A stretch of DNA of 64,000 nucleotides from Dermatophilaceae bacterium (GCA_025924375.1 JAICIN010000001.1:5895-69894); one strand, 5' to 3'. Positions 28,854 through 46,739 are shown, numbered from the stretch's first letter. Notes: a model not told the origin generated them from the sequence alone. Numbers and translations are program-made.

Positions 28854-28858
28854 GCCCC

Positions 28859-31016: not shown

Positions 31017-33626
31017 GTGCGCACCTCGCTGGCCACTGTCATCGGCTTCGTCGTCGCCGTCATGTTCGCAGGTCCGGCCCAGGCCAGACCGCCGCAGGCC
31101 GGCACGCCGAGCGCGAACATCTACGTGGGCGGAGCGGGGTGTTCGGACGCCGGGAGCGGCACGATCGGCACTCCGTACTGCACCATCGGCGCGGCGGCGG
31201 CGGTCGCGGTCGCCGGGCAGACGGTCATCGTCGCGGCTGGGACCTATCCCGAGAACGTCACGCCGAAGAACAGCGGGCAGCCGAGCGCCCCCATCGTGTT
31301 CACCGCCGCACCCGGTGCCCTGGTGACCGTCACCGGGCAGGCCCATGGCTTCACGATCTCCTCGCGCCACGACATCACCGTCAGCGGCTTCACCGTCAGC
31401 GGCACCACCTCGAACGGGATCTACCTCAAGGGCTCGTCCGGGATCAAGGTGACCGCGAACACCGTCACCGCGTCCGGGAGGCGTGTCCAGGGCCAGACGG
31501 CAACGGGCATCTACGCGAGCGGGACGACGAGCTCGACCATCTCCGCCAACATCAGCTACGACAACTCGGACGCCGGGATCTACCTCACCGGTGGCAGCAC
31601 CGGCATCCAGGTGCTCGGCAACCAGACCTACCTCAACGCCCGGGGATACGCCCGCGCCGCGCCGGGGATCGACGTGCGGAGCCCCGGGAACCAGATCATC
31701 GGCAACGTCAGCCACGACAACGAGGACTCCGGGATCCAGTTCTACCCGGGCGGCGACGACAACCTCGCTGCCGACAACGTGATCTACCACAACAAGGGAT
31801 GGTCCTCGACGCTGAACGCCGTGGTCGGCGACCACGGCATCGACAACCTGGGGGTGCGGGGAAACCGCATCGTCTCCAACAGCGTCTACGACAACGTCAC
31901 GGCGGGCATCAACGTGGAGGGCCTGCCGGCATCGTGGTTGACCGCTGCGGTCGGGAGTGCGGACACCACGCTGGCCGTCGGCACGGCCACGGGGTTCCCG
32001 ACCAGCGGCGCATTCACCATCCAGGTCGACAACGAGCAGATGACCGTGACCGCCGGGCAGGGGTCGACGGTCTGGACGGTCCAGCGCGGGGTGAACGGCA
32101 CGCTTCCTGCCGCGCACGCCGCCGGCTCCTCGACCAGCCAGAACGTCTTCCAGTGGAGCGGCTTCGTCATCGAGAACAACGTCCTGATGGACAACGCGGT
32201 GAACTGCCCGAACGCCTCGGGCGGGGTCACCACCTGTCCCGCGACCAAGGGCAACATCCGTGTGGACAAGAGCTCCTTCGTGGGTGTCACCGTCGACTAC
32301 GACCTGATGTACCTCAGCGTGCCGGGCACGTGGGGGACCTGGCAGCAGACGTTGTACTCCTCGCTGAGCGCCTTCGCCGCCGCGAGCGGGAAGGAGGCCC
32401 ACGGGCTGGCCGGCGACCCCAAGTGGGTCAGCCCCGGCCATGGCGACCTGCACCTGCGGCGGGGCTCCGGCGCCATCGACTCCGCCGACTCCGGCGCGCC
32501 GGGGGAGCAGCCGACCGACCGGGACGGCAACGCCTGCGCCGACGACGCCCTCACGTCCAACACCGGCGCCGGGCCGCTGCCCTACTGCGACCGCGGCGCG
32601 TACGAGTACCAGCCCGACTACCCACCGACGGCCGCGTTGACCGTCTCGCCCGCCTCCGGCACGGCGCCCGTCACCGTCGTCGCGGACGCGTCCGGGTCGT
32701 CCGACTCCGACTCGACACCGATCGCGTCGTACAGCTTCAACTTCGGCGACGGCTCGCCCGTCGTCGGACCCCAGCAGGCTGCGACGGCGACACACACGTA
32801 CACCCTCGGTGGCACGTTCCCAGTCACGGTGACCGTCACGGACACCGCGGGCGAGCAGTCGACGACGGCGCAGTCGGTGACCGTCACGGCGTCGTCGGCG
32901 GCGCCGACCGCCGCCCTCACGGTGAGCCCGAGCAGCGGCGTGGCACCACTGGCGGTGACCGCCGACGCCTCCGGCAGCTCGGACCCGGGTGGTGGCCAGA
33001 TCGTGTCGTACACCTTCGACTTCGGTGACGGGTCCGCAGTGGTCGGTCCACAGGCCAGCCCGACTGCTGCACACACGTACGGCGCCGGCACCTGGACGGC
33101 CACGGTCACTGTGACGAACGCGCAGGGTCTCAGCGGACACGCCACGCAGACGGTCGCGGTGAGCTCGCCACCCACCAACCTGATCGGCAACCCGGGTTTC
33201 GAGTCCGGAACGGCAGGCTGGAACACCAGTGGTAGGACCGGGATCACGCTCACCACGGTCAGCGGCGGTCACTCCGGCAGCTTTGCCGCCGAGCTCAGCA
33301 ACAGCGGTACTGCGACGCAGCCGGACTGCACGCTCAACGACGCCCCGAACTGGGTGTCGTCGACCCAGGCCGGGAGCTACCTCGCCAGTGCATGGGTGAG
33401 GGGCCCCGCCGGAGTGACGGTGCAGCTGCGGATCCGTGAGTACAACGGTTCCACGTTCGTCGGGTCACAGGCCGTGACGACGACGCTGACCTCGAACTGG
33501 TCGCAGCTCTCCGTGACCTATCCCGTCGGTGTGGTCGGCTCCACGCTGGACCTCACGTTGTACAAGACGAACGCGGCACCGGGCCTGTGCTTCGACGCGG
33601 ACGACCTCTGGCTGTCGCACTCCTGA
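31017..33626 (+). CDS. Secreted right-handed parallel beta-helix protein with tandem PKD-like domains and a C-terminal carbohydrate-binding (CBM4/9-like) module; candidate polysaccharide lyase/depolymerase
   Basis: Signal peptide VRTSLATVIGFVVAVMFAGPAQA. Repeated ...GI(Y/D)L...N.I..N... beta-helix turns. Two clear PKD-like repeats (YSFNFGDGSPVVGPQQAATATHTY...VTVTVTD and YTFDFGDGSAVVGPQASPTAAHTY...ATVTVTN). The tail NLIGNPGFESGTAGW is typical of CBM4/9. Confidence 0.8.
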   Translation: MRTSLATVIGFVVAVMFAGPAQARPPQAGTPSANIYVGGAGCSDAGSGTIGTPYCTIGAAAAVAVAGQTVIVAAGTYPENVTPKNSGQPSAPIVFTAAPGALVTVTGQAHGFTISSRHDITVSGFTVSGTTSNGIYLKGSSGIKVTANTVTASGRRVQGQTATGIYASGTTSSTISANISYDNSDAGIYLTGGSTGIQVLGNQTYLNARGYARAAPGIDVRSPGNQIIGNVSHDNEDSGIQFYPGGDDNLAADNVIYHNKGWSSTLNAVVGDHGIDNLGVRGNRIVSNSVYDNVTAGINVEGLPASWLTAAVGSADTTLAVGTATGFPTSGAFTIQVDNEQMTVTAGQGSTVWTVQRGVNGTLPAAHAAGSSTSQNVFQWSGFVIENNVLMDNAVNCPNASGGVTTCPATKGNIRVDKSSFVGVTVDYDLMYLSVPGTWGTWQQTLYSSLSAFAAASGKEAHGLAGDPKWVSPGHGDLHLRRGSGAIDSADSGAPGEQPTDRDGNACADDALTSNTGAGPLPYCDRGAYEYQPDYPPTAALTVSPASGTAPVTVVADASGSSDSDSTPIASYSFNFGDGSPVVGPQQAATATHTYTLGGTFPVTVTVTDTAGEQSTTAQSVTVTASSAAPTAALTVSPSSGVAPLAVTADASGSSDPGGGQIVSYTFDFGDGSAVVGPQASPTAAHTYGAGTWTATVTVTNAQGLSGHATQTVAVSSPPTNLIGNPGFESGTAGWNTSGRTGITLTTVSGGHSGSFAAELSNSGTATQPDCTLNDAPNWVSSTQAGSYLASAWVRGPAGVTVQLRIREYNGSTFVGSQAVTTTLTSNWSQLSVTYPVGVVGSTLDLTLYKTNAAPGLCFDADDLWLSHS

Positions 33627-33974: not shown

Positions 33975-35291
33975 GTGGAACCGACCGAGGTCCTGTCACG
34001 CATCTTCAACCGGCATCGGCTGCTGGTGTTCATGATGGTGCTGCTCGGTCTCGGCACCGGTCTGGGCCTGCACTGGAACGATGGGCCGACCTACCAGGGA
34101 ACGGCACGACTGCTGGCCACGGCCTCCGACCCGACCTCGTCCGGCCAGGCCACCGCGGTCGCGGACACCGTCCGCGGGCTTGCCACTGGTCAGGCGCTCG
34201 TGCGCCGGGCGCTCGCCTCGATCGGTGTGCACCGTGACCCGGTCCAGGTCGCCACCTACGCCATCACCGTGCAGAGCCTGGGGTCGTCGGGCGTGGTGCA
34301 GCTGCAGGTCACCGACCATGACCCCAAGGTGGCCCTGCAGCTCACGAATGCCGTCGCGCGCGCCGTCGTCCAGGAGCGCAGCGACGCCGCGTCCAGCGGC
34401 CTGCGGTCCCAGATCACTGCGCTGCAGGACAGGATCGACGGGGTCGAGGCCGAGGTTGCCACCGTCGACCAGAAGCTCAGCGTGGTCAGCAAGCAGGCCG
34501 GCACGGTGGATCCCGCTGTCGCCAGCGAGGCCAGCGCCGAACGCGCGCAGCTGCTCGCGCAGCGGACGGGGCTCACCGAGGAGCTCGGCGTCTACACGAG
34601 GAGCAAGACGGACCTTGAAGGGCAGCTGGCCGGGGAGCCGCAGGCCGCCGTGGTCGACACCGCGCAGGCACCCGCGGTCGAGGTGACACCGCGACAGCTG
34701 CCCGATGTGGCGCTCGGTGGCCTCCTGGGCCTCGTGCTGGGAGTGGCCCTCGCGGGTGCGCTCGAGACGCTTCGCCCGACCGTCATGGGTCGCATCGCGA
34801 TCGCGCGGTCGCTGCAGAGCCCGGTCCTCGGCGAGGTGCGGCGCTACGCGTCCGACTGGAACCGCGCAGACGTGCTCGAGACGGCGTCGCACATCGGACT
34901 CGCGGCGACCGGCGCCGAAGTGCGGCGCGTCGACTTCATGAGCATCTCCGAGCAGGTCGACGTGGCGGGTCTGGCTGCTGCCGTCGGCAAGGAGCTCACC
35001 AACCTGACCGTCGAGGTCGCGGACCGCGACACCATCGTCGCCCGGTTGGTGTCGGACGGTGACGGAAGCAGCTCTCTGCAGGGGAACCGCGGCCGACGCG
35101 CCGGGTCGGTGCGCGGGCTCGTCCTCGTGGTGCCGGAGGCCGTCAAGCTGGCCGACCTGGAACCCGCGCGCGACTTCCTCGCCATCTCGGGCTGGCCGTT
35201 GCTGGGCGTGGTCATCGCGCAGCGTGCCAACCCCCTCGCACTCGTTCGCCGTGACTCCACCCCCAACCTGACCGGAGAGGCCACCGCATGA
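33975..35291 (+). CDS. Polysaccharide co-polymerase (Wzz/PCP-2b-like) with a C-terminal domain resembling a BY-kinase but lacking Walker A and a Tyr cluster
   Basis: TM1 LLVFMMVLLGLGTGLGL, a coiled-coil ectodomain, TM2 VALGGLLGLVLGVALAGAL, then a ~170-aa cytoplasmic domain (…RRVDFMSISEQVDVAGLAAAVGKEL…GLVLVVPEAVKLADLEPARDFLAISGWPLLGVVI). Confidence 0.7.
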   Translation: MEPTEVLSRIFNRHRLLVFMMVLLGLGTGLGLHWNDGPTYQGTARLLATASDPTSSGQATAVADTVRGLATGQALVRRALASIGVHRDPVQVATYAITVQSLGSSGVVQLQVTDHDPKVALQLTNAVARAVVQERSDAASSGLRSQITALQDRIDGVEAEVATVDQKLSVVSKQAGTVDPAVASEASAERAQLLAQRTGLTEELGVYTRSKTDLEGQLAGEPQAAVVDTAQAPAVEVTPRQLPDVALGGLLGLVLGVALAGALETLRPTVMGRIAIARSLQSPVLGEVRRYASDWNRADVLETASHIGLAATGAEVRRVDFMSISEQVDVAGLAAAVGKELTNLTVEVADRDTIVARLVSDGDGSSSLQGNRGRRAGSVRGLVLVVPEAVKLADLEPARDFLAISGWPLLGVVIAQRANPLALVRRDSTPNLTGEATA

Positions 35292-35335
35292 CCATCATCG
35301 AACGGCCCGAGATGACCATCATCGAGCGGCCCGAG
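35288..35335 (+). repeat. Tandem duplication of the first 8 codons (24 bp) of the aminotransferase gene
   Basis: ATGACCATCATCGAACGGCCCGAG / ATGACCATCATCGAGCGGCCCGAG, with one synonymous difference. The translation is MTIIERPE-MTIIERPE. Confidence 0.9.
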
Positions 35336-36502
35336 GTGCTGCCCGCGCCTGTTCTCGAGCGGATCGCCTTCGCGCGCACGCCGATCAGCCCGGCCACGGC
35401 CGCTGCCGTGGCAGAGGTGCTCAGCTCCGGCTGGCTCACCACCGGCCCGAAGGTGGCGCAGTTCGAGCGCGAGTTCGCCGAGTTCACGCAGACGCAGCAC
35501 GCGGTAGCGGTCTCCTCCTGCACCACGGCGCTCGAGCTGTCGCTGAGGTCCCTGCGACTGCCGGCCGGGGCGCCCGTGCTCACCTCGACCGTGACGTTCT
35601 GCGGTGCGGTCAACGCCATCCTGCACGCAGGCCTGCGGCCGGTGTTCGTCGACATCGACCTCGATACCCTGATGCCGGATGCCGAGTCCGTCGCAGCGGC
35701 AGTGCACCGCAGTGGCCGACCGGCCGCCGCAGTGGTGCTGCACTTTGCCGGTCACCCCGCGCCGGTTGCCGAGATCGCCGCCGCTGCCGGGCTGCCCCTG
35801 GACCGGGTCATCGAGGACGCTGCTCACGCAGTCGGGACCCGTGTCGGTGAGCGACCCGTCGGCGGCCTCTCCGCAGCAGCCTGCTTCAGCTTCTATGCGA
35901 CGAAGAACCTGCCCATCGGCGAGGGCGGAATGGTGACCACCGACGACCTCGACGTCGCCGACTTCGTCCGCAGGTGCCGGTTGCACGGCATGAGCCGCGA
36001 CGCCTGGAAGCGCTACCTGCCCGGCAACTCGTGGCGCTACTCCGTCGAGGAGGTCGGACTCAAGGCCAACATGACCGACCTCCAGGCGGCGATCGGCCTC
36101 GCGCAGCTGCCCGAGGTACCGGCGTGGCAGCGTCGACGCGAGCAGCTGGTGGCGCGCTACGACGAGGCGCTCGCGGGCGTACCCGGACTGGTCCGGCCCG
36201 CCCGTCCCTCGGTGGGGCGGCACTCGTGGCACCTCTACGTCGTCCGTGTCACGCCCGAGTTCGGCATGTCGCGCGACGACCTCATGGTCCGTCTCGCCGC
36301 GGCGGGCATCGACTGTTCCGTGCACTTCATCCCGATGCACACCCAGCCCTACCTCGTCGGTCTGCCCGACGTGGACCCTCGCCACTTCCCCGTCGCGGAA
36401 GCCGCGTTCGCGCAGTACTTCTCGCTACCGCTCTACCCGGACCTGACCGACGGGCAGGTCGACCGGATCTGCGCCGAGATCGCCGCCACCACGATCGTGT
36501 GA
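35288..36502 (+). CDS. DegT/DnrJ/EryC1/StrS-family PLP-dependent sugar aminotransferase
   Basis: VLSSGWLTTGPKVAQFEREFAEF...AVSSCTTALELSL...FSFYATKNLPIGEGGMVTT. The ATG overlaps the upstream stop (ATGA). Confidence 0.9.
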   Translation: MTIIERPEMTIIERPEVLPAPVLERIAFARTPISPATAAAVAEVLSSGWLTTGPKVAQFEREFAEFTQTQHAVAVSSCTTALELSLRSLRLPAGAPVLTSTVTFCGAVNAILHAGLRPVFVDIDLDTLMPDAESVAAAVHRSGRPAAAVVLHFAGHPAPVAEIAAAAGLPLDRVIEDAAHAVGTRVGERPVGGLSAAACFSFYATKNLPIGEGGMVTTDDLDVADFVRRCRLHGMSRDAWKRYLPGNSWRYSVEEVGLKANMTDLQAAIGLAQLPEVPAWQRRREQLVARYDEALAGVPGLVRPARPSVGRHSWHLYVVRVTPEFGMSRDDLMVRLAAAGIDCSVHFIPMHTQPYLVGLPDVDPRHFPVAEAAFAQYFSLPLYPDLTDGQVDRICAEIAATTIV

Positions 36503-36525
36503 ACCACGCACGTAAGGGAGAACCC

Positions 36526-37623
36526 ATGGACACCACAGGCAAGACGCGGAACGGGCTGGAGCGCATCGACCGGCGCGGCCGGAGACGCGGCGGCCTCTCC
36601 AGCGTCACGGTGATCGGTGGCGCCGGCTATGTCGGGTCGCTCCTGGTCGAGCGGCTGCTCGAAGCCGGGACGTCGGTCACCGTCATGGATGCACTGATGT
36701 TCGGTGACGACGGGCTCCGGACGGTCGTCGACCATCCTCGGCTCACGTTCGTGCACGGTGACCTGCGGGACATCGAGGCGGTCGTCCGGGCCTGCGCCGG
36801 CGCGGACGCCGTCGTCCACCTCGGCGCGGTGGTGGGCGACCCGGCCTGCGCGCTCGACGAGGCCGCGACCCTCGCGATCAACCGCGACGCGACCGTCACC
36901 ACGGCGCGAGTGGCGCGGGCCCTCGCGGTGCGCCGGTTCGTCTTCGCCTCGACCTGCAGCGTCTACGGCGCCTCGGACGAGCTGCTCACCGAGGAGTCGG
37001 AGAAGGCCCCGATCTCGGTGTACGCCCGCAGCAAGGCCGAGTCCGAGGACCTGCTGCTGCCGATGTCGGGACCCGACTTCCACACCACGGTGCTGCGCTT
37101 CGGCACGCTGTTCGGGCAGTCGCGGCGTGACCGCTTCGACCTGGTGGTCAACCTGCTCGCAGCCAAGGCGGTCATCGATGGCGAGATCAGCATCAACGGC
37201 GGTGACCAGTGGCGACCGTTCGTCCACGTCGCCGACTGCGTGGACGCGGTCCTCGCCTGCCTCGACGCCCCCGAGTCCGCTGTCAGCAGCCGCATCTTCA
37301 ACGTCGGGTCGGACGCGCAGAACCGCACGCTGCGCGACGTCGGCGAGATGATCCGTGACCTGCTCCCCGACGTACGAGTCCTGTACGGCGAGTCCGCAGC
37401 CGCGGAGGCGAACTACCGGGTCAGCTTCGAGCGCATCTCGACCGAGCTGGGGTTCCACCCGGAGCGCACGCTCAGCGACGGCATCGTCGAGATCCAGGAT
37501 GCCGTGCGCGCAGGCATGGTCACCGACTACACGGACGCCCGGTACAGCAACTTCCAGTCGCTGGTCACCGGGCGGGCCAGCCTCGACCTCGTGCAGCCCG
37601 CCGCCGAGGCAGGGGTCGGCTGA
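36526..37623 (+). CDS. NAD-dependent epimerase/dehydratase (extended SDR)
   Basis: AAGGGAG RBS followed by ATG. It has VIGGAGYVGS (Rossmann), STCSVYG and YARSK (YxxxK). Confidence 0.85.
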   Translation: MDTTGKTRNGLERIDRRGRRRGGLSSVTVIGGAGYVGSLLVERLLEAGTSVTVMDALMFGDDGLRTVVDHPRLTFVHGDLRDIEAVVRACAGADAVVHLGAVVGDPACALDEAATLAINRDATVTTARVARALAVRRFVFASTCSVYGASDELLTEESEKAPISVYARSKAESEDLLLPMSGPDFHTTVLRFGTLFGQSRRDRFDLVVNLLAAKAVIDGEISINGGDQWRPFVHVADCVDAVLACLDAPESAVSSRIFNVGSDAQNRTLRDVGEMIRDLLPDVRVLYGESAAAEANYRVSFERISTELGFHPERTLSDGIVEIQDAVRAGMVTDYTDARYSNFQSLVTGRASLDLVQPAAEAGVG

Positions 37624-37624
37624 C

Positions 37625-38602
37625 GTGACGACCGCGCTGCAGGGAACGCTCGGCACGGGCGGTGAGACGCTCGCCGTCGAGTGCGACGTGCCCTGGCTCG
37701 CCCGCCACATCCTGGAGGGGGCGGACGGGCAGATGGGTGCGACCGGCGCGGCGACCGTCCACGTCCACGTCGAGGGCGATCGCCAGCCGTTCGCCACGCA
37801 GGGCTGGACCCGCCTCTCGCGCGACGCGTGGGCGCACTCGGGCCGGGTCGTGATCGAGGACGTCGCAACCTCCGGGCTGGACGTCCTCCTGAGCGGTGGC
37901 CCTGACGGCGTCCACGTCCTGTGTCGATGGAGACCACCACCCCGCACCCGAGTGGCGGCCGGCCTTCTCCGGACACGCTCTCGGCTGTTGCTGCGGGCGG
38001 TTCTCCTCCAGTACCCGGTGTTCTGGGCGGCAGCACTGCGCGGTCGCGCTCCGCTGCACGCGTGTGGCCTGACGTCGACCACTGGCGTCGCGGTGCTCTT
38101 GGTCGGTCCCAGCGGTGCCGGCAAGACGACGGTGGTGCAGAACGAGGTCGGGGCCGGCGGCAGCGCCACCACCGACAACCTCTGCGCGGCCGACGCGCAG
38201 ACCGCCTGGGGCGTCGTCGAACCAGTTCGCTCGGAGCAGGGCTCCGGCCGACGGGCGCCACACGGCCGGCACGAGAGCGGGCTCGCTCGCCGGGTCCCGT
38301 CGGTCGACCCGCAGGCGGTGGTCGTCCTGGCGCGCGGCGAGCGCACGGAGCTGCGGGAGATCGCACCATCCGAGGCGGCCCGTGCGCTGGTCGCCTCCAC
38401 GTACGCGGCGGGCGAGCTGCGCCGGTACTGGCCGTTCCATGCCCAGGCAGGCCTGGGCACCGGCTCGGGCGCGGCGCACCCGCCCGTGGGCGAGGTCGCC
38501 GCGGCGCTGTGCGCCCGGCTGCCCTGCCGCCGGTTGACGCTCGCCGGCGTACGAGATGTCCGGCTCGGGGACGTTCTGGCTGCAGAGGGGTTACCACGAT
38601 GA
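37625..38602 (+). CDS. HPr-kinase-C-terminal-domain-like P-loop protein (function unknown)
   Basis: GTG lies 1 nt after the upstream stop. The segment VAVLLVGPSGAGKTTVVQNEVGAGGSATTDNLCAAD parallels the HprK/P arrangement GxSGxGKS...G..LvaDD. I recognise no other domain. Confidence 0.5.
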   Translation: MTTALQGTLGTGGETLAVECDVPWLARHILEGADGQMGATGAATVHVHVEGDRQPFATQGWTRLSRDAWAHSGRVVIEDVATSGLDVLLSGGPDGVHVLCRWRPPPRTRVAAGLLRTRSRLLLRAVLLQYPVFWAAALRGRAPLHACGLTSTTGVAVLLVGPSGAGKTTVVQNEVGAGGSATTDNLCAADAQTAWGVVEPVRSEQGSGRRAPHGRHESGLARRVPSVDPQAVVVLARGERTELREIAPSEAARALVASTYAAGELRRYWPFHAQAGLGTGSGAAHPPVGEVAAALCARLPCRRLTLAGVRDVRLGDVLAAEGLPR

Positions 38603-40035
38603 GCGCTACCACACCCAGGACCGACGCCGCCCTGCGTGTGCCCCGGGTCTTCGACAGCGCCGACGTGCCGGCGGATCCGCAGGTGCTGGCGACTCTCGAG
38701 CGGGGGGTGTCGGCGGTCGACCTCGCGGCGCGCCCAGTGGTGCTCCCGGACTTCCACCACAAGCACGACATGGAGATGCCCTCGAGCATCGCCGTGGCGA
38801 CGACCGGCACGATCAGGCCCGCATTCACCAGCGCCTCGGTGAACTGTGGCATGGCGCTCATCGCGCTGGATGCCGAGCGTCCCGAGGACACCGCGGTCAC
38901 CGCCTTCTTCAGGGCCATCGCGGCGCGCTACCCGCATCCCCCCTCGTGGCGCCGGGAGCTCTCCGCCGACGACGTGGTCCGAGCGGCCGTCGAGGGCGCG
39001 GAGTTCGGGGTGGAGCGCTACGGGCTGGACCCTTCCGCCCTGGAACGGATCGAGGAGGGCGGCCGCCTCGACCTCGACCGCTACGGCGGTGCGCCACGTC
39101 TGCGCCGCGAGCTGCCGGCGCTGTCGTTCCAGGCATCCCGGTTCCGGTTCGGCACCGTCGGGCCGAGCAACCACTTCGTGGAGCTCCAGACCGTGGAGGA
39201 GATCCTCGACCCCGCGGCCGCTGCGGCGCTCGGCGTGGCCAAGGGCCAGCTGACCCTCCAGTTCCATGCCGGCGGTGGCCTGCTCACCGGTCAGGTCGGT
39301 CGCTTGTTCGCGCGCCGCAAGAAGATCAACCGCGCGCTGGCCCTGGAGATGGCGTTCGCGCGCACCCTCGCGCACCTGTTCACGGTGCGTTCCATGACGC
39401 AGCTGCGCGAGCGGCTCGACTACTACTTCCGTGACGGGTGCCCGGCGATCCCGCTGGATGGTGCCGAGGGCAGCCGCGCCATGCTCGCCAACGCCGCGGC
39501 GATGAACTACGGCTTCGCGTTCCGGACGGCGACGTATGCGACGCTCGCCCAGCTCGCGATGCGTGAGCTCGGTGCCGGCTCGGTCAAGCTCGTGGTCGAC
39601 TCACCGCACAACTCGATCTACTCCGAGCAGGTGGACGGAGCGGAAGCCGTGGTCCACCGGCACAACTCGTGCCGCGCCTACCCGGCTGAGCGCATGTCGC
39701 CGGGAACGGCGTTCGGCGCCGTGGGCCAGGCAGTCCTCGTGCCTGGAATGCACTACACGTCGTCGTACCTGTGCGTCGCGTCCGGCGGCTCGGAGCAGAG
39801 CCTGTACTCCGCCTGCCACGGTGCCGGCACGGTCATCGACGGGGCCGTTCGTGCCGGCTGGTCCGACCTGGATGAGCAGCGGCGCTCGACGTGGCGCTTC
39901 CGCTATGGCCAGGACGAGCCCGAACGAGTCCCGCACCTCGACGACCGGGGCATCGACGCCGCGCTGTCGATCCTGACCCGTCACGACCTGGTCCGGCCGG
40001 TGGCTCGGCTGCGTCCGATGGCGGTGCTGAATTGA
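38599..40035 (+). CDS. Diverged RtcB-family (3'-phosphate/5'-hydroxyl nucleic-acid ligase fold) protein
   Basis: The ATG overlaps the upstream stop (ATGA). Collinear RtcB blocks are present: LPDFHHKHD, SVNCGMAL, GPSNHFVELQ, QFHAGGG, SPHNSIY, VHRHNS, PGMHYTSSY, SACHGAG. Confidence 0.7.
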   Translation: MSATTPRTDAALRVPRVFDSADVPADPQVLATLERGVSAVDLAARPVVLPDFHHKHDMEMPSSIAVATTGTIRPAFTSASVNCGMALIALDAERPEDTAVTAFFRAIAARYPHPPSWRRELSADDVVRAAVEGAEFGVERYGLDPSALERIEEGGRLDLDRYGGAPRLRRELPALSFQASRFRFGTVGPSNHFVELQTVEEILDPAAAAALGVAKGQLTLQFHAGGGLLTGQVGRLFARRKKINRALALEMAFARTLAHLFTVRSMTQLRERLDYYFRDGCPAIPLDGAEGSRAMLANAAAMNYGFAFRTATYATLAQLAMRELGAGSVKLVVDSPHNSIYSEQVDGAEAVVHRHNSCRAYPAERMSPGTAFGAVGQAVLVPGMHYTSSYLCVASGGSEQSLYSACHGAGTVIDGAVRAGWSDLDEQRRSTWRFRYGQDEPERVPHLDDRGIDAALSILTRHDLVRPVARLRPMAVLN

Positions 40036-41345
40036 CCATCGCGTCCACCGATGCACGACAGCCAAGGGCCGGTCTCGGCCGCTGGGATGTCGGATCGACC
40101 AAGCCGCTCCGAGTCGCTCCGCAGGACCGGCTCGCGCTTCGCGCGGCAGGTCTGGCCATCTGCACCCTCCCCGTGCTGTTGCCCGCCCTGCCGGCCAACC
40201 TCGCGCCAGCGGACCTGGTGTTCGTGCTGGCCATCGGGACGGCGCTGCTGTGGGCCGCGACCACGCGGGCGCAGCTCGCCCTGCCCTACCGGCTCGGCGT
40301 CGGCGCCATGGCCATTGCCGGTCTGGTGTCCGGCCTCTTCGGTGACTGGCCGGACCTGGCGCTCCTCTCCGTCAGCCAGGACCTCTTCCTCCTGGTGTGG
40401 GGCGCCATGCTGGCGACACTCATGCATGACGCGCCCTCGGCCGGCATGCTGCTGCGCACCTGGGTGTGGTCGGCAACAGTCTGGGCGCTCGCGTTCGTCG
40501 TGGCCACCAGCCGCACGGCGCTCGCCTCGGGACCGGACGCCGTCCGGGTCGGGTTCGTCTTCGGCGACCAGAACGCAGCCGGCCTGTACTTCGTCCTGTC
40601 GCTGCTCGTCATGGTCGCGGCGGGCTGGCCCCGACCGAGGGTCGCGCGCCTGCTCATCGGCCTCCTGTTCCTGACGGCCACGGTCTACACCGGTTCCCTC
40701 GGAGCCCTGAGCGGCGTTCTGCTCGGTATCGCGTGCGGCCTGGTCATCGGCGTGCGCGGGCGCCGTGGACGGGTGCCGGCCGTTGCCTTCGCGGCCGCGC
40801 TGGTGCTGGCGTCGGCCTCGGTCACCCTGCTTGTACAGCGGATCGACCTGATCGACGCCGCGCACGACAGCTCCAACTCCCTCCTGCGGAACTCCATCGG
40901 ACGCGAGGCGCAGAGCAGCTCCGAACGGGCCGTGCTGCGTGGCGAGTCCTACCAGCTGTGGCGCGCCTCCGACCTGGTCGGCAGCGGTCCGGCGACCACG
41001 AAGGACCTGCTCAGCGCCGAGCAGGCCCCTTACCCCAAGGAAGCCCACAACGACTGGCTGGCAACCCTGATCGAGCGGGGCGTCCTGGGCACGGTGGGGC
41101 TGCTCCTGCTCGTCGCCGAGCTCGCCCTGCGCGCTCACCGGGGCTGGGTCCGGGCGCACCACGACGAGGCGCTGCGCCGGGTGCTGCCGCGGCCGGGCTA
41201 CCTCGTCGGTGCGCTGGTGTGCGTGCTGGCGTTCAGCTACACCCACGAGGTGCTGCACGACCGGACGGCGTGGACCCTCTTCGGGTTCGTCGGCGCTGTC
41301 GTACTCGGTTGGCACCAACAAGCGCAAGTGAACGGGGGAACCTGA
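40032..41345 (+). CDS. O-antigen ligase/polymerase-family (Wzy_C-like) polytopic membrane protein
   Basis: About 10 hydrophobic helices and a large loop with YPKEAHNDWLATLIERG, the family's HN motif. The start is uncertain; the TTG at 40032 overlaps the upstream stop, and internal GTGs are also possible. Confidence 0.7.
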   Translation: MTIASTDARQPRAGLGRWDVGSTKPLRVAPQDRLALRAAGLAICTLPVLLPALPANLAPADLVFVLAIGTALLWAATTRAQLALPYRLGVGAMAIAGLVSGLFGDWPDLALLSVSQDLFLLVWGAMLATLMHDAPSAGMLLRTWVWSATVWALAFVVATSRTALASGPDAVRVGFVFGDQNAAGLYFVLSLLVMVAAGWPRPRVARLLIGLLFLTATVYTGSLGALSGVLLGIACGLVIGVRGRRGRVPAVAFAAALVLASASVTLLVQRIDLIDAAHDSSNSLLRNSIGREAQSSSERAVLRGESYQLWRASDLVGSGPATTKDLLSAEQAPYPKEAHNDWLATLIERGVLGTVGLLLLVAELALRAHRGWVRAHHDEALRRVLPRPGYLVGALVCVLAFSYTHEVLHDRTAWTLFGFVGAVVLGWHQQAQVNGGT

Positions 41346-41346
41346 C

Positions 41347-42291
41347 ATGACTGCAGTTGTCACCGGCGCAGCCGGCTTCGTGGGATCGCACCTGTGCCGG
41401 GCCCTGCTGGACGCCGGCCACGAGGTGGTGGGCGTGGACTGCTTCACCGACTACTACCCGAGGGCCTACAAGGAGCTCCACCTCGCGGGACTGCGCGGCC
41501 GGGCGAACTTCTGGATGGTCGACGACGACCTGCTGACCATGCGGCTGGAACCGGTGCTCGAGGACGCCGAGTACGTGTTCCACCTGGCGGGCCAGCCCGG
41601 GGTGCGCGCCTCGTGGGGGCCGGAGTTCCAGACGTATGCCCGGCAGAACGTGCTCGTGACCCAACGCCTGCTCGAGGCCTGCCGCGGGCTCTCCATCGCC
41701 AAATTGGTCTACGCCTCGAGCTCCTCGGTCTACGGTGATGCGGAGTCGTTCCCGACTCCCGAGACGGTGTGCCCCCGGCCCGTGTCGCCCTATGGCGTCA
41801 CCAAGCTCGCCGGGGAGCACCTGTGCGAGGTCTACCGGCGGAACTTCGGCGTCGCGACGGCGTCCCTCAGGCTGTTCACCGTTTACGGGCCGGGGCAGCG
41901 ACCGGACATGGCGTTCGCCCGGCTGGTTGGTGCCGCGGTCGCCGGCGGGCGCTTCGAGCTGCTGGGCGACGGTCGTCAGAGCCGTGACTTCACCTTCGTC
42001 GAAGACGTCGTGCGGGCGATGGTCGATGCCGCGAGCTCGTCGTGGTGCGGCATCGCGAACATCGGCGGCGGGTCGCGGGTGACGATGAACGAGGTCATCG
42101 ACCTCGTCCGCGAGCTGTCCGGGCCCATCGACCTGGTGCACGACGGAGCGGCGGTCGGCGACGTGCGGCACACCGCCGCTGACTGCAGCACCGCGCGCTC
42201 GGGCTTCGGCTACCAACCGGCCACATCGCTGCGCGACGGCCTGGCACTCATGGTCGCCGCGGCTGCGGACAGCGAGGCGGTGGTCGCCTGA
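41347..42291 (+). CDS. NAD-dependent epimerase/dehydratase (UDP-sugar 4-epimerase / UDP-GlcA decarboxylase-like SDR)
   Basis: VVTGAAGFVGSHL, ASSSSVYG, YGVTK (YxxxK). Confidence 0.9.
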   Translation: MTAVVTGAAGFVGSHLCRALLDAGHEVVGVDCFTDYYPRAYKELHLAGLRGRANFWMVDDDLLTMRLEPVLEDAEYVFHLAGQPGVRASWGPEFQTYARQNVLVTQRLLEACRGLSIAKLVYASSSSVYGDAESFPTPETVCPRPVSPYGVTKLAGEHLCEVYRRNFGVATASLRLFTVYGPGQRPDMAFARLVGAAVAGGRFELLGDGRQSRDFTFVEDVVRAMVDAASSSWCGIANIGGGSRVTMNEVIDLVRELSGPIDLVHDGAAVGDVRHTAADCSTARSGFGYQPATSLRDGLALMVAAAADSEAVVA

Positions 42292-43688
42292 TGGTGCAAC
42301 GGTGGGTGGCGCCTCCGCCGACAGGCCGAGCCGGTCCAGGCCTGCCTGGTGCGCCTGCACCGCGTCGGCTGAAGGTGCTGCACGTCATCACCGCGTTCGA
42401 GGCCGGGGCGGGCGGCAACACGCTGCTGTCGGCCGCCGGGATGGACCGGGCACGGTACGAGACCTGGATCGCAGGCAGCTCCGACGGGCCGCTGTGGGAC
42501 GACGCCGAGGCAGCCGGCGTGCATACCGTCCGGATCGATGGCTTCGACAAGGAGGTTGCGCCACGTCGCGACCTCGCGGTCCTGCGCAGGCTCGTCCGGC
42601 TGATGCGCAGGGAGCGCTTCGACATCGTGCACGTGCACTCGGCGAAGGCCGCCACGCTGGGCAGGCTCGCGGCGTGGCTGTGCGGCGTGCCCGTGGTCGT
42701 CTGCACCATTCACGGTCGCGACCCGTGGTGGCCGGCTGGACGCGGCTCCGCGAGCGACCTCGATGACCTGATGCCCTTGCACCAGCGGTGGTTGTTTCGT
42801 CGCGTCGAGCGCGCGCTGTGCCGGATCACCGACAGCTTCGTCGCGGTGTCACCGACCGTTGCGCGCGATGCCGTGATCGCCGGTGTCGCGTCGCCGGGAC
42901 GCATCAGCGTCGCGCCGTCCGCAGTCGACACCGCGGCGATCCCGATGGCACAGGACCGGGACATCCGTCGCGAGCTCGGCATACCGGTGGACGTGCCCGT
43001 CGTCGGGACGGTGGGGCGCATCGGGGCGCAGAAGTGCCCGCTGGACTTCGTGCGCATGGCGGCCGGCGTCCGCCGCAGCCACCCGCAGGCCCGCTTCGTG
43101 ATGGTCGGCGAGGGCGAGCTGGCAACGCAGGTCCGGGCCCTCGCTGAGGAGCTCGACGTGCCGCTTCTCGTCACCGGCTACCGGACCGACGCGGTCCGTG
43201 TCGCCGCGACGTTCGACGTCTACGTCGTGACCTCCCGCTACGAGGGCGTCGGTCGCGCGGTGACCGAGGCGCTCGCGTCGGCGCGGCCGGTGGTGGCGAC
43301 CGCGGTCGACGGTGTCGTCGACCTGGTCTCCCACGGCTCGACCGGCCTGCTCGTCTCCCCACGTGACGTCGATGGTCTCTCCCGCGGGGTGTGCTGGCTG
43401 CTGGAGCACCCGGCCGAAGCGGCGGTGATGGGCCGGCAGGGCAGCGTGCTGGTGCGGGAGCTGTTCACCACCGAGCGCATGTGCGCGGCGCTCGACGAGG
43501 TGTACGGGCAACAGCTCGGCCTCGCGGCCGGGTGCCAGGCGGCCGCGCCGCAGAACCGGCGACCGGCCGTGACGACCGCTTTGACGACTGCTTTGACGAC
43601 CGCCGACGTGCCGGCCGACGTGCCGGGCATGGTCCCGGCCGCCGTCCCTGCAGCCGCGCCTGCCGCCCTCCAGGAGCACGCGTCGTGA
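42291..43688 (+). CDS. Family 4 glycosyltransferase with a low-complexity C-terminal tail
   Basis: LKVLHVITAFEAGAGGNT...VHVHSAKAATLG...GRIGAQKCPLDF...SRYEGVGRAVTEALAS (E-x7-E region). The tail reads TTALTTALTTADVPADVP.... Confidence 0.85.
   Translation: MVQRWVAPPPTGRAGPGLPGAPAPRRLKVLHVITAFEAGAGGNTLLSAAGMDRARYETWIAGSSDGPLWDDAEAAGVHTVRIDGFDKEVAPRRDLAVLRRLVRLMRRERFDIVHVHSAKAATLGRLAAWLCGVPVVVCTIHGRDPWWPAGRGSASDLDDLMPLHQRWLFRRVERALCRITDSFVAVSPTVARDAVIAGVASPGRISVAPSAVDTAAIPMAQDRDIRRELGIPVDVPVVGTVGRIGAQKCPLDFVRMAAGVRRSHPQARFVMVGEGELATQVRALAEELDVPLLVTGYRTDAVRVAATFDVYVVTSRYEGVGRAVTEALASARPVVATAVDGVVDLVSHGSTGLLVSPRDVDGLSRGVCWLLEHPAEAAVMGRQGSVLVRELFTTERMCAALDEVYGQQLGLAAGCQAAAPQNRRPAVTTALTTALTTADVPADVPGMVPAAVPAAAPAALQEHAS
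43571..43628 (+). repeat. Two sets of 12-bp in-frame tandem repeats in the GT4 3' end
   Basis: GACGACCGCTTT / GACGACTGCTTT / GACGACCGCC, then GACGTGCCGGCC / GACGTGCCGGGC. Confidence 0.85.
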
Positions 43689-44311
43689 CCACGGCCGGCG
43701 TGCGCCGTGACGCGCGGTCCACGACGTGGCAGTTCGTCGCGCCGGGCCAGCCCACCGAGTTCCTCGTTGTCGCGGACCCCGCCGACTGCCCGGAAGGCGC
43801 CCTCGCCGTTGCCCCGGGGGATCTGTCGCGCCACTGCAGGCCCACCGGCTGGCCGGCCGTTGCGGCACCGGACCTCGGCACGGCGAGCGCCCAGGCCGGG
43901 TCGGGGGCGGCGGCCCTGCTGGAGCTCCTGGCGCACCAGGTGGCGGCCGGTGGCTGGCTCCTCGTCGGTGTCTCGAACTCGTGGTACCCGGCTCGGGGCG
44001 GTGGCTCCGGCCGGCTCAGCCTGGCCCGGATCCATCACGTCGTTCGCCGCGGGGGCCTGCATGTCGACGCGCTCTACGTCGCGCTGCCCGACCACCGCCG
44101 TCCGGCAGTGCTCGCGGCGTCCCAGCCGGCGCGTGCCCTGGACGAGGTGCTGGACCGGCTCCCGACCAGCTACGTCGAGGCGAACGTGCGCTGGCCCCGG
44201 GCGCGTCGCCGTGCCCGTTCGTTGCTTGCGAGGGCCGCTTCCTCCGCGCCGCATGCAGTGCGGTTGCGGTTCGCGCCGGCCTACGTCGTCGTCGCACGGC
44301 GGCCGGCGTGA
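43685..44311 (+). CDS. Hypothetical protein (faint class-I methyltransferase-fold resemblance, no intact SAM motif seen)
   Basis: The GTG overlaps the upstream stop. LLELLAHQVAAGGWLLVGVSN resembles the post-motif-III region of methyltransferases. GC3 is good. Confidence 0.45.
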   Translation: MTTAGVRRDARSTTWQFVAPGQPTEFLVVADPADCPEGALAVAPGDLSRHCRPTGWPAVAAPDLGTASAQAGSGAAALLELLAHQVAAGGWLLVGVSNSWYPARGGGSGRLSLARIHHVVRRGGLHVDALYVALPDHRRPAVLAASQPARALDEVLDRLPTSYVEANVRWPRARRRARSLLARAASSAPHAVRLRFAPAYVVVARRPA

Positions 44312-45396
44312 TCGACGACCTGGTGCAGATGCTCAACGAGCGGTCCTCCCGGCTCGGACTGCCGTCCCTGCACGCCGGTCTCGTCATCGGGGTCGACGCC
44401 GACCCTGCGGGCAAGGTCACCATGATCCTGCTCGACGATGGCGGATCGCCCCGAGCCGTCGCAAAGGTGAGCCGGCGGCCCGACGACGACTCGCGGCTCG
44501 ACGCGGAGCACTCGGCACTGCAGCGGGTACGGCAGCACGCCCTGCCCAGTGTCGGCTCCTCGGTCCCGCGGCCGCTCCTGCTCGAGAGGGTCGCCGGCCG
44601 ACCGGCACTGGTCACCACCGCGGTGCCCGGAGCGCCGCTCAGCGTCCGGTACCACCATCCGGGGCACGTCAGCTCGCCCCTGCGGGTGGAGGCGGACTTC
44701 GCCGCTGCCGCCCACTGGCTCGCGGCGTTCCAGAGCGACACCGGAACCTCGACGGTGTCGTGCGAGGAGGTCTGGCACAGCCAGATGGCGCCGTTGTTCG
44801 CCCGCTACCAGGCGAGCGTCGGGTGGTCCGACTGGGAAGCGAGCCTGTACGGCCGCATGTTGCGCTGGGTCGACGACTTCGCGGATGTGCCGATACCCCT
44901 GGGCTGGGTCCATGGCGACTACTGCATCGGCAACGTGCTGCTCCACGGCGACGTCGTCACCGGCGTCGTGGACTGGGAGCTCGGCCGCGAACCGGCGATG
45001 GCCTTCACCGACATGTTCAAGTTCGCCGCCTCCTACGGCTCGTTCCTCGACCGCGCGGCGCCGCGGCGTGGTGACGGCATCGCCGGCCACGCCGGCTGGG
45101 CCACCGCCAGGCGGCGCTGGCGCAGCAGCAGCTCGTGGTCCAACCTCACCGGTTTCGTCTACACCTACTTCGGTGACGGCTGGTTCCCGGAGCTGGTGCG
45201 CGACTACCTGACGGCCGGCTACCGCCGGTTCGGCTGCCCACCCGACGTCGAGCCCCTCCTCCTGCTCGGCTTCGTCGCGGAGCAGGTGCTCACCCTGGAC
45301 AACCCGGTCTACCGCAATGGCTACCGCGCCCTCCTGCACGCCATGTCGGAGCTGTACGACGACTATCGTCCGAGGCGCTCGGCGGTGACAGCGTGA
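44308..45396 (+). CDS. Aminoglycoside-phosphotransferase-fold (APH/choline-kinase-like) kinase
   Basis: The GTG overlaps the upstream stop. It has the Brenner motif WVHGDYCIGNVL followed by GVVDWE. Confidence 0.7.
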   Translation: MIDDLVQMLNERSSRLGLPSLHAGLVIGVDADPAGKVTMILLDDGGSPRAVAKVSRRPDDDSRLDAEHSALQRVRQHALPSVGSSVPRPLLLERVAGRPALVTTAVPGAPLSVRYHHPGHVSSPLRVEADFAAAAHWLAAFQSDTGTSTVSCEEVWHSQMAPLFARYQASVGWSDWEASLYGRMLRWVDDFADVPIPLGWVHGDYCIGNVLLHGDVVTGVVDWELGREPAMAFTDMFKFAASYGSFLDRAAPRRGDGIAGHAGWATARRRWRSSSSWSNLTGFVYTYFGDGWFPELVRDYLTAGYRRFGCPPDVEPLLLLGFVAEQVLTLDNPVYRNGYRALLHAMSELYDDYRPRRSAVTA

Positions 45397-46739
45397 ACCC
45401 CCGGGCCGCGGGGCGTCGTGCGTCGGGGAGCAGCGGTGGGCTCCGGCAAGCCATCGCGCGCACCCCGATCACCAACAACCTCGTCGCGCGGGTACTCGCC
45501 CTCGGCGCGCTCACCCTCGCCAGCCTGCTGGTGGCCCGCACCATGGGCCCGGCTGGGGTGGGGGCCCTGTCACTCCTGCGCATGCTCCCCTGGCTGGTGG
45601 GACTGGTGCTGGGCGGCGGGCTCTACGGAGCGGCTCCCTACTTCCTCTCGCGACCAGCGGGGAGGCATCCGTCATACCGAGCGACGTTCCCCGCCATAGC
45701 GATCTGCGCCGGAGTGGTCGGTGCCGGGGCGTGGCTGGCGCTGACCCCGGTCCTGCACCACGCCTTCTACCCCCAGGTCTCGACCGGCCTGGTGGCCGCC
45801 GCGGCAGTCACCGTGGTGACGCAGCTGCTCGAGACGACCGCCAAGACGTGCTCCCAGGGGATCGGGGACATGGCCGGCAGCAACCGGATGATCGTGCTGG
45901 AAGAGGCGCTGTTCGTGCCGTTGTACCTGGCCCTGGCCGGCGCCGGCCTCGGCCACTACGCGGCGATGGTGGCAGCGCTCGCCCTGGGCGACATCATCAA
46001 CGCCGGGCAGGGCTGGACGCGCCTCATCCGGCGAGGATTCCTCACCGGGGGGCGTCCGTCGCTGGCGCGCGCCCGGGAGATCGTGTCCTACGGGACCCGG
46101 GCCGAGCTGAGCAGCATCGCGCTGCTGCTGAACGCCAGGCTGGACTTCGCGATCGTGGCCTCGATCGCCGGCCCGACCCCGCTCGGGATCTACGCCGTGG
46201 CCTCGCGGTACGCGGAGCTGCTGAGGTTGCCGAGCCTTGCGATGAACTACGTCCTGTACCCGGCATACGCCAGGCAGGACCGGGACGAGGCACTGGTGTC
46301 CACGGTGCAGGCACTGCGGCGGCGGGCGTGGGCGCCGGCGGCCGTCGCCGTACCGATGGCGGCGCTGGCCCCGGTGGTCCTGCCCGCGTTCTACGGCAGC
46401 GACTTCCGCCCGGCCGTCCTGCCCGCGTGGCTCCTCCTCATCGGTCTCGCGGGTGGTGGAGTCACGGGCATCCTCTCGGCGTACCTGTACGCCGTCGGCA
46501 GGCCCGGCGTCGTCTCGGCCGCACAGGGCCTCGGGGTCGTGGTCACGGTCGCCCTCGACCTGACCCTCATTCCCCGGTACGGCATCACCGGCGCTGCCGT
46601 CGCCTCGGCGGCCGCGTACGTGTCCACGACGGTCGTGCTGTTCGCGATCTTTCGTGCGCGCGGCGCGGTCCCCGACGACGACCGAGAGGTCGTGACCACC
46701 GACCAGCCGTCGCACCCAGCGGAGGAGACAGTGACATGA
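45393..46739 (+). CDS. Polysaccharide flippase (Wzx / MOP superfamily)
   Basis: 448 aa with about 12-14 TM helices. The start overlaps the upstream stop. Confidence 0.8.
   Translation: MNPRAAGRRASGSSGGLRQAIARTPITNNLVARVLALGALTLASLLVARTMGPAGVGALSLLRMLPWLVGLVLGGGLYGAAPYFLSRPAGRHPSYRATFPAIAICAGVVGAGAWLALTPVLHHAFYPQVSTGLVAAAAVTVVTQLLETTAKTCSQGIGDMAGSNRMIVLEEALFVPLYLALAGAGLGHYAAMVAALALGDIINAGQGWTRLIRRGFLTGGRPSLARAREIVSYGTRAELSSIALLLNARLDFAIVASIAGPTPLGIYAVASRYAELLRLPSLAMNYVLYPAYARQDRDEALVSTVQALRRRAWAPAAVAVPMAALAPVVLPAFYGSDFRPAVLPAWLLLIGLAGGGVTGILSAYLYAVGRPGVVSAAQGLGVVVTVALDLTLIPRYGITGAAVASAAAYVSTTVVLFAIFRARGAVPDDDREVVTTDQPSHPAEETVT

Follow-up and report, generated by a model that had tools for sequence, protein, structure and literature searches.

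A diverged RtcB-family protein and its P-loop partner form a conserved module of bacterial glycan-assembly gene clusters

Introduction

To our knowledge, RtcB is known only as an enzyme that joins the ends of RNA and, in vitro, also of DNA, and we know of no RtcB-like, ScmC-like or APH module in the PglC/PglF/PglE-initiated Wzx/Wzy pathways or in the XrtA/PEP-CTERM exopolysaccharide (EPS) pathways. Phosphocholine decoration of teichoic acids and lipopolysaccharide (LPS) by LicA, LicC and LicD proceeds through a kinase, a nucleotidyltransferase and a phosphotransferase. The DNA analyzed here (the window) is a 64,000-nucleotide stretch from a Dermatophilaceae bacterium (GCA_025924375.1, JAICIN010000001.1:5895-69894), in which the gene for a P-loop protein (37625–38602, + strand) directly precedes, and overlaps, the gene for an RtcB-like protein (38599–40035, + strand) inside a translationally coupled Wzx/Wzy glycan operon. 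With the PglC-initiated and XrtA-associated EPS loci this operon shares Bac_transf, DegT, dehydratase, glycosyltransferase family 4 (GT4), Wzx, Wzy and co-polymerase genes, together with a FemAB-like protein matching TIGR03019 and a stp2-like GT4. The RtcB-like protein has the fold and the full-length Pfam match of the RtcB RNA ligases (Pyrococcus horikoshii PH1602, Escherichia coli RtcB, human RTCB); unlike them it stands in glycan clusters with a putative ScmC-type partner, in some cases forms a single polypeptide with that partner or with Wzx, and has no RtcA, RtcR, archease or PrfH in the gene tables examined.

Conserved adjacency, one natural fusion and co-inheritance show that the RtcB-like and P-loop proteins form a module, and this module belongs to glycan or glycolipid assembly, being physically tied to a flippase in one lineage. 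As to its function, we suggest, with a confidence that falls a little short of even, that the pair would be a dedicated two-protein module of the Wzx/Wzy-dependent surface-glycan pathway, carrying out a nucleotide-dependent, phosphate-activating step on the lipid-linked glycan before it is flipped.

Results

Family and fold of the RtcB-like protein

The open reading frame (ORF) at 38599–40035 encodes 478 amino acids and carries the motifs LPDFHHKHD, SVNCGMAL, GPSNHFVELQ, QFHAGGG, SPHNSIY, VHRHNS and SACHGAGT. These blocks, and the P-loop motifs of the upstream product, had been picked out in an earlier reading of the DNA alone (the sequence-only reading), which placed the protein in a diverged RtcB family; every motif that it quoted is present in the translations where it had located them, and the family assignment is borne out by profile, sequence and fold. 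The protein matches Pfam PF01139 strongly and with full coverage (E = 1e-45, 157.2 bits against a cut-off of 27, profile positions 15–424 of 426), and phmmer aligns it to P. horikoshii RtcB (PhoRtcB, PDB ID 1uc2) with E = 6e-30. Its AlphaFold model has a predicted local distance difference test (pLDDT) value of 87.9, and the significant Foldseek matches in the PDB are 16 RtcB/RTCB chains only (E ≤ 2.5e-23), with template-modeling (TM) scores of 0.63–0.69 at about 21% identity. The product is without doubt a full-length RtcB-family protein, and a diverged one. All NCBIfam RtcB models score far under their cut-offs on it, and no curated subfamily includes it.

Retained and replaced active-site residues

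Residues were mapped by phmmer alignment to PhoRtcB, with functional roles taken from the literature (PMC9745838, PMC8051266), and conservation was read from a subfamily alignment of 48 homologues at 60–87% identity and from a wider set of 60 representatives at 23–61% identity. In PhoRtcB the metal-1 ligands are Cys98, His234 and His329 (PMC9745838), His404 is the nucleophile, and Asn202-His203-Phe204 and Glu206 form the nucleoside monophosphate (NMP) pocket (PMC9745838, PMC8051266). All of these are kept. The metal-1 ligands align to Cys83, His223 and His337, invariant in the subfamily; the nucleophile aligns to His407 of the SACHGAGT block, present in 48/48 close homologues and 58/60 representatives; and the NMP pocket is retained as Asn191-His192-Phe193-x-Glu195. 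Among the 60 representatives His192 and His337 are found in 60/60, His223 in 59/60 and Cys83 in 55/60. The invariant positions of the 48-sequence alignment include Asp51, His53, His54, Lys55, Ser80, Asn82, Cys83, His192, Phe193, Glu195, His223, Gly225–227, His337, Asn338, His353–Asn356, Cys406 and His407; the His-Asn motif of the RNA ligases is also shared. The RtcB-like protein thus appears to keep the machinery for a covalent His-NMP adduct.

A second group of residues is replaced. The metal-2 ligands of PhoRtcB are Asp95, Cys98 and His203 (PMC9745838, PMC8051266); the Cys and His are retained, and Asp95 corresponds to Ser80, which is Ser in 48/48 close homologues, with Asp in only 2 of the 60 representatives. 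Arg238 of PhoRtcB (Arg189 in the E. coli enzyme), which grips the first two phosphates of the 5'-OH strand and is required for sealing (PMC8051266), corresponds to Gly227, with Gly in 48/48 close homologues and Arg in none of the 60 representatives. Of two further PhoRtcB residues with assigned roles (PMC9745838, PMC8051266), His242, which packs on the 5'-OH strand, is Gly231 in the RtcB-like protein, and Lys480, which reads the guanine O6, is Asn, His or Thr in the Actinomycetota subclade and Lys in 48/60 of the wider clade; PhoRtcB Glu206, likewise a guanine contact, aligns to a kept Glu195. PhoRtcB Arg408 is replaced by Thr411 (Thr in 47/48 close homologues). Roles for Arg408 and Arg412 (Arg341 and Arg345 in E. 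coli) were not found in the RtcB papers searched, and we assign no meaning to this change. Two motifs set the clade apart from RtcB, PDxHxK in place of PDxHxG (Lys in 59/60) and HRHN in place of HRKG.

The Asp-to-Ser and Arg-to-Thr changes, both noticed in the sequence-only reading, are therefore real, and since Ser80 and Gly227 are invariant and Thr411 occurs in 47/48 close homologues, they are fixed substitutions and not decay. The residues that canonical RtcB uses for the GTP γ-phosphate and metal 2, and for its grip on the 5'-OH polynucleotide, have thus been exchanged in this clade. Two arginines near the active site, Arg181 and Arg183, are invariant in the 48-sequence alignment, so phosphate binding of some sort is still likely. 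The same reading had asked whether the two-metal site and the His pocket survive the Asp-to-Ser change, and the answer is divided: the RtcB fold is there, and by the phmmer alignment the metal-1 ligands and His407 are kept, but the metal-2 Asp is lost.

Loss of the metal-2 Asp, together with the fusion to Wzx described below, could also suit a pseudoenzyme that, without catalysis, scaffolds or regulates the assembly complex, for instance by gating the flippase. MOP flippases can sense substituents, as TacF does (PMC13385700), which lends this idea an analogy and nothing more direct. We consider it very unlikely, because the nucleophilic His, the three metal-1 ligands and the NMP-pocket residues are near-invariant at 23–61% identity, which is not expected of a dead enzyme.

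The P-loop partner

The product of the upstream ORF (325 amino acids) has the Walker A motif GPSGAGKTT, of the form GxSGxGK[ST], followed 14 residues on by an acidic/amide TDN motif, a layout that the sequence-only reading described as HPr-kinase-like. At the family level this description does not hold. Pfam HprK_C (PF07475) gave no match to the protein even at E ≤ 10, the only matches being to generic P-loop families, and HprK_C was absent among the 25 families listed for 55 P-loop homologues, 24 of which have weak matches to PEPCK_ATP. Searches of PDB sequences with the protein and its profile likewise returned generic P-loop matches only, with phosphoenolpyruvate (PEP) carboxykinase (PEPCK) and HprK at E of about 0.6–0.7, and the family profile matched Lactobacillus casei HprK (PDB ID 1jb1) with E = 0.73. 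Membership of HprK was ruled out on the missing HprK_C match, and the relation was kept at the level of the fold, where the description does stand: the AlphaFold model has a pLDDT of 94.6, and its best 50 Foldseek matches in the PDB are all PEP carboxykinases (best E = 9e-10, TMq 0.36–0.47). The PEPCK fold superfamily also includes the catalytic domain of HprK/P.

A database protein identical to the P-loop protein (P0121) has a precomputed match to Pfam PF27840, a family named ScmC in one of the locus gene tables. Against the NCBIfam ScmC model TIGR04249 the match is weak (E = 1.4e-4, 21.3 bits against a cut-off of 125), as is a match to FomB kinase. The partner is, on the precomputed match and the predicted structure, probably a member of the Pfam ScmC family with a PEP-carboxykinase/HprK-like fold. 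ScmC occurs in a cassette with radical S-adenosylmethionine (SAM)/SPASM and PqqD proteins. Unlike this, the window operon has no radical-SAM/SPASM or PqqD cassette genes and the partner is an RtcB-like protein; three distant loci (L087, L089 and L090) do have a radical-SAM/SPASM gene in the vicinity of the pair. Literature searches on SynChlorMet/ScmC returned only unrelated uses of the acronym.

A further difference from ScmC lies in the Walker A motif, whose Lys (the column of Lys167 in the window protein) is Arg in several homologues (P0213, P0227, P0230 and P0240; GxGRS[TL]), with the Gly residues invariant. Active kinases rarely have Arg at this position, which hints that nucleotide may be bound but no phosphate transferred in the conventional way; the substitution fits an archease-like loading factor slightly better than a kinase as the role of the partner.

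Conservation of the gene neighborhood

The RtcB-like protein has relatives in more than 120 database clusters at ≥61% identity and the P-loop protein has 399 homologues, with a near-identical gene order in three unrelated assemblies, among them Streptomyces sp. TLI_185. A scan of GTDB species genomes found RtcB-like relatives in 186. From these genomes 80 loci were fetched, among them loci of Terrabacter, Intrasporangium, Humibacillus, Terracoccus, Kribbella, Nonomuraea, Dactylosporangium, Jatrophihabitans and many metagenome-assembled genomes (MAGs), and neighborhoods were counted in 51 non-redundant loci flanked by 8 kb or more on each side. The P-loop, APH, DegT, GT4 and Wzz-like genes are each present in 50/51 loci, Wzy in 46/51, Bac_transf in 40/51 and Wzx in 39/51 (the last two counts being limited by locus edges), a small protein in 36/51, the PIG-L gene in 12/51 and the FemAB-like gene in 10/51. 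There are at least three gene arrangements, and the P-loop gene lies directly 5' of the RtcB-like gene in only 11/50 loci, the distance elsewhere reaching about 8 kb, in either direction. In the other gene orders a PglF-like Polysacc_synt_2 dehydratase stands in for the short-chain dehydrogenase/reductase (SDR), and in these orders (B and C) the FemAB-like gene was not found. The linkage to glycan genes thus outlasts many rearrangements, which argues for a shared function, and the pair is an integral member of these operons and not a passenger, as had been claimed from the window alone.

The counts bear directly on a reading in which the pair heals and seals RNA or tRNA ends for the FemAB-like aminoacyl-transferase, or in which a bona fide RNA-repair RtcB merely happens to lie in the operon. 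RtcB family membership by profile and fold, the conserved Arg181 and Arg183, and a window FemAB-like protein that exceeds the cut-off of its FemAB family model are all compatible with such a role. The FemAB-like gene, however, accompanies the pair in only 10 of the 51 loci and is absent from the other arrangements, which removes the basis of the tRNA hypothesis put forward in the sequence-only reading. Moreover, the protein lacks the Arg for the 5'-OH strand and the Asp of metal 2, the glycan-gene linkage survives rearrangement, a Wzx fusion exists, and RtcA, archease, RtcR and PrfH are not nearby, none having been found among the window operon genes by Pfam scans or in ten distinct related gene tables. 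We regard an RNA-directed role as so improbable that it can carry hardly any weight. Named database relatives are labelled "tRNA-splicing ligase RtcB", "RNA-splicing ligase RtcB" or "RtcB family protein", and the automatic tRNA- or RNA-splicing ligase labels on many members of the clade are probably wrong.

Fusion proteins and distant loci

An exhaustive search of representative sequences returned 1223 proteins at E ≤ 1e-3, with graded full-length relatives at 25–46% identity that carry the clade signature. Two of the proteins are informative fusions. P0270 (885 amino acids) joins a P-loop protein to an RtcB-like protein, 298 columns of the P-loop family profile being aligned by hhalign with its N-terminal domain (probability 98.8%, E = 4e-17), and P0318 (996 amino acids) joins a Wzx-type MOP flippase, homologous to the Wzx of the window, to an RtcB-like protein. 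A third protein, P0258 (571 amino acids, from a metagenome), was considered as a second P-loop fusion and rejected, because its similarity to the P-loop protein is confined to residues 1–66; a frameshift or an error of gene calling across the ATGA junction probably accounts for it, and it was not used.

Six distant loci (L086–L091) were examined by gene tables and a profile scan, with relatives at 30–40% identity, for example in a Chloroflexota MAG, which is among L086–L090. The P-loop gene lies directly 5' of the RtcB-like gene, or is fused to it, in five of the six (L086–L090). Within these five, a Wzx-like flippase follows directly 3' in four, L087 having instead an ABC transporter directly 5' of the P-loop gene; a glycosyltransferase of family 2 (GT2) or GT4 is nearby in 5/5 and an epimerase in 4/5. 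A second, non-homologous kinase also recurs, APH in the Actinomycetota and in L087, and a PPDK_N/PEP-utilizer (Rph-like) protein in L088 and L089. The locus of the Wzx::RtcB fusion (L091) contains Wza, Wzz, DegT, a Bac_transf::PglF fusion, Wzy and GT4, and a gene of the CDP (cytidine diphosphate)-alcohol phosphotransferase family lies directly after the fusion; tried as a P-loop homologue, this last protein was rejected (hhalign probability 0.3%).

In the three Chloroflexota-type loci (L088, 12815–17730; L089, 7955–8851 and 15035–21455; L090, 14861–15940) a UbiA prenyltransferase gene accompanies the P-loop/RtcB-like/Wzx trio. Two of them, L088 and L089, add a geranylgeranyl-reductase-like gene and one for an Rph/PPDK-type phosphotransferase, and L089 a polyprenyl synthase and a type-I phosphodiesterase. 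These loci possibly represent a second cluster type, distinct from that of the window, whose product may be either a glycolipid or a dedicated carrier lipid. Such neighbors (polyprenyl synthase in L089, UbiA, the geranylgeranyl-reductase-like gene in L088 and L089, and Wzx) would suit a module acting on the lipid carrier itself, in which the P-loop protein phosphorylates polyprenol or handles polyprenyl phosphate, and polyprenyl phosphate is activated by the RtcB-like protein, which then links it to a hydroxyl of a sugar or of glycerol. The Actinomycetota clusters, however, are without prenyl-lipid genes, and in them an ordinary PglC-type phosphoglycosyl transferase already serves to attach sugar to the carrier; we consider action on the carrier improbable.

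Layout of the window operon

The G+C content of the window is 70–77%, and third-codon-position G+C delimits a single run of + strand genes at about 33.9–49.1 kb, to which Pfam and NCBIfam scans assigned functions. Both genes of the pair are open and free of stops, and both frames are supported by third-position G+C values of 0.81–0.89 for the P-loop gene and 0.88–0.93 for the RtcB-like gene. The stop codon of the SDR gene (37621–37623) is separated by 1 nt from the GTG start of the P-loop gene at 37625, from which the N-terminus of the protein aligns with those of its homologues. The P-loop and RtcB-like genes overlap by ATGA (38599–38602) and the RtcB-like and Wzy-like genes by TTGA (40032–40035), junctions that are just as the sequence-only reading had claimed, and two more overlaps follow downstream, both GTGA (43685–43688 and 44308–44311), so that of the junctions inspected four have a start/stop overlap and a fifth a 1-nt gap. 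A scan for promoters and terminators found none inside the operon; this fits a single transcription unit but is uninformative in a genome of 72% G+C.

All components of a Wzx/Wzy cluster (Bac_transf, GT4, Polysacc_synt_3/MurJ, Wzy_C and a GNVR/EpsF-like co-polymerase) are encoded in this one operon. The first gene (33975–35291) encodes a polysaccharide co-polymerase-like (Wzz/chain-length determinant) protein, with weak matches to Pfam GNVR and to the NCBIfam EpsV/EpsF/XrtA chain-length determinant models. It is followed by a DegT/PglE-type sugar aminotransferase (35288–36502; Pfam DegT_DnrJ_EryC1, E = 5e-106; nearest NCBIfam model PseC, 304 bits, under its cut-off) and by the SDR epimerase/dehydratase (36499–37623; Pfam Epimerase, E = 6e-45), which is found in type-A clusters only. 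Downstream of the pair lie a Wzy-type polymerase (40032–41345; Pfam Wzy_C, E = 1.4e-13), an NAD-dependent sugar epimerase/dehydratase (41347–42291; Pfam Epimerase, E = 3e-55) and a GT4 glycosyltransferase (42291–43688; Pfam Glyco_trans_1_4 and Glycos_transf_1, E of about 1e-27) that resembles stp2, an XrtA-system glycosyltransferase in NCBIfam. Next come the small conserved protein (43685–44311), an APH-family phosphotransferase of aminoglycoside/choline-kinase fold (44308–45396; Pfam APH, E = 6e-19) and a Wzx-type MOP flippase (45393–46739; Pfam Polysacc_synt_3, Polysacc_synt and MurJ). The run ends with a PIG-L-family de-N-acetylase (46736–47431; Pfam PIG-L, E = 1e-24; type-A clusters only), the PglC-type phosphoglycosyl transferase (47289–48041; Pfam Bac_transf, E = 9e-53 over residues 55–247, the true start being probably near 47428) and a FemAB/GNAT-like acyl- or aminoacyl-transferase (48038–49123; Pfam Acetyltransf_6 and FemAB), likewise found in type-A clusters only. 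The last scores 267 bits with NCBIfam TIGR03019 (pepcterm_femAB, "FemAB family XrtA/PEP-CTERM system-associated protein"), whose cut-off is 260; the ORFs scanned in the window, an actinobacterial sequence, yielded no exosortase gene.

The small protein (140–207 amino acids) has no family assignment, with no match in Pfam, NCBIfam or PADLOC. It is always encoded directly 5' of the APH-type kinase (also at 15080–15502 in L022 and 11402–11842 in L025), and jackhmmer found homologues in 47 loci, including those with other gene orders. The APH-type kinase and the small protein may be a second conserved pair. A defence-system reading of the P-loop/RtcB-like pair was ruled out, as neither the pair nor the APH-type kinase nor the small protein had a meaningful match among the PADLOC models.

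Just 5' of the operon, 31017–33626 (+) encodes a protein of 869 amino acids with a right-handed beta-helix/NosD region, two PKD domains and CBM_4_9. A homologue lies near the cluster in 31/51 related loci, and L091, the Wzx::RtcB locus, is likewise followed by a gene for a beta-helix protein. The 869-residue protein is a candidate for a secreted enzyme, a depolymerase or lyase, that degrades the glycan. Further upstream, a PALP-family (CysK-like) pyridoxal phosphate enzyme is encoded 5' of the glycan region (27924–29455, +), followed by a hexapeptide/serine-acetyltransferase-like gene; these two probably serve ordinary cysteine synthesis, unrelated to the glycan operon. A large AAA/STAND-type LuxR (GerE) regulator is encoded at 22788–25256 (+) and a CCG-domain/4Fe-4S oxidoreductase at 25360–27690 (−). 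Two-component and GerE regulators also lie 5' of the cluster in related loci.

Discussion

The enzyme class described here is known, and its context, partner and likely substrate class are new; literature searches for RtcB in connection with polysaccharides, flippases, undecaprenyl or HPr-kinase-like proteins found nothing. The sequence-only reading had called for a neighborhood survey, and the pair does co-occur with Wzy, Wzx and Bac_transf genes. Its first hypothesis, the formation of a phosphodiester by chemistry borrowed from RNA repair, is compatible with everything found. In its more specific form, RtcB-type chemistry may have been recruited for phosphodiester or cyclic-phosphate decoration of a lipid-linked glycan at the cytoplasmic face of the membrane, with the putative ScmC-type P-loop protein as obligate cofactor or kinase, and we hold this as a tentative proposal, possible but appreciably less than an even chance.

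Under this proposal the module would work at the membrane from the cytoplasmic side, its substrate being the repeat unit on its polyprenyl carrier immediately before flipping. A kinase would place a phosphomonoester on a sugar or small alcohol, a role that would fall to the constantly co-occurring APH-type enzyme, with an Rph/PPDK-type enzyme instead in two of the three Chloroflexota-type clusters. With the P-loop partner assisting its loading with NMP, the RtcB-like enzyme would activate this phosphate as R-O-P-P-N, and attack by a hydroxyl would then leave the glycan with a substituent in phosphodiester linkage or with a cyclic phosphate. Alternatively, the P-loop partner could itself be the kinase, and the sequence cannot separate the two roles; as maker of the phosphomonoester the APH-type kinase would seem at least as good a candidate. 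Phosphoester chemistry is favored because additional non-homologous kinases (APH or Rph-like) recur, the polynucleotide clamp is lost and a CDP-alcohol phosphotransferase gene adjoins the Wzx fusion. The Lic system offers an analogy, though only that, with its APH-fold kinase making a phosphomonoester that, as in the proposed scheme, is activated by a nucleotide and transferred as a phosphodiester onto a lipid-linked glycan ahead of a MOP flippase. Unlike the Lic loci, the window cluster has no LicC- or LicD-type proteins, and activation as well as transfer would fall to the RtcB-like protein, by way of a His-NMP intermediate.

The residues and gene sets leave room for a shorter reaction, in which the RtcB-like protein would be a nucleotidyltransferase halting at step 2 of the RtcB pathway: a sugar-1-phosphate or alcohol phosphate made by the APH enzyme would react with His-NMP, comparable to the His-UMP (uridine monophosphate) of GalT-type enzymes, to give a nucleoside diphosphate (NDP)-sugar or NDP-alcohol donor for the GT4/GT2 enzyme or a phosphotransferase. 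The APH fold includes anomeric sugar kinases as well as choline kinase, in keeping with such a precursor. Pfam scans and gene tables show no conventional sugar-1-phosphate nucleotidylyltransferase in the clusters, a glycosyltransferase is adjacent or nearby (GT4 in 50/51 loci, GT2 or GT4 in the five distant loci), and the sealing-step Arg (E. coli Arg189, PhoRtcB Arg238; PMC8051266) is missing in 60/60 clade members. The fusion to Wzx, however, suggests a membrane or lipid-linked substrate and not a soluble precursor, and common donors, sugars derived from uridine diphosphate N-acetylglucosamine (UDP-GlcNAc), are already supplied through the DegT and PglF-like enzymes. Supply of a donor is in our view unlikely, though not far-fetched. 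The enzyme may thus either complete ligation to a phosphodiester or cyclic phosphate or halt at the NDP-activated donor.

Several observations weigh against a phosphate-activating glycan module and its proposed chemistry. Conserved synteny indicates a shared function and not a mechanism, and binding of a nucleic-acid backbone through Arg181 and Arg183 is still conceivable. The exchange of Asp for Ser at metal 2 could impair NTP (nucleoside triphosphate)-dependent self-nucleotidylation as known from RtcB, so that the actual chemistry may differ, and loss of the Lys that reads guanine O6 in the Actinomycetota subclade makes it uncertain which nucleotide would be used. On the side of the partner, the Walker A Arg of several P-loop homologues calls kinase activity into question, and a profile scan found no P-loop gene within the 17.8 kb of the Wzx::RtcB locus.

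A large clade, comprising 186 GTDB species genomes and distant branches, thus has a remodelled RtcB active site and sits in glycan or glycolipid clusters, and it includes culturable carriers (Terrabacter, Kribbella, Intrasporangium, Humibacillus, Nonomuraea, Dactylosporangium and Streptomyces sp. TLI_185). If the proposed function is correct, the clade would provide the first non-nucleic-acid substrate for the RtcB superfamily, extending it to carbohydrates or lipids, and would give a first functional handle on the uncharacterised ScmC P-loop family. It would also represent a new way of making phospho-substituted polysaccharides, one that needs no NDP-alcohol and is widespread among Actinomycetota and Chloroflexota of the soil, and an unrecognised enzymatic step in the synthesis of cell-surface polymers by abundant soil bacteria.

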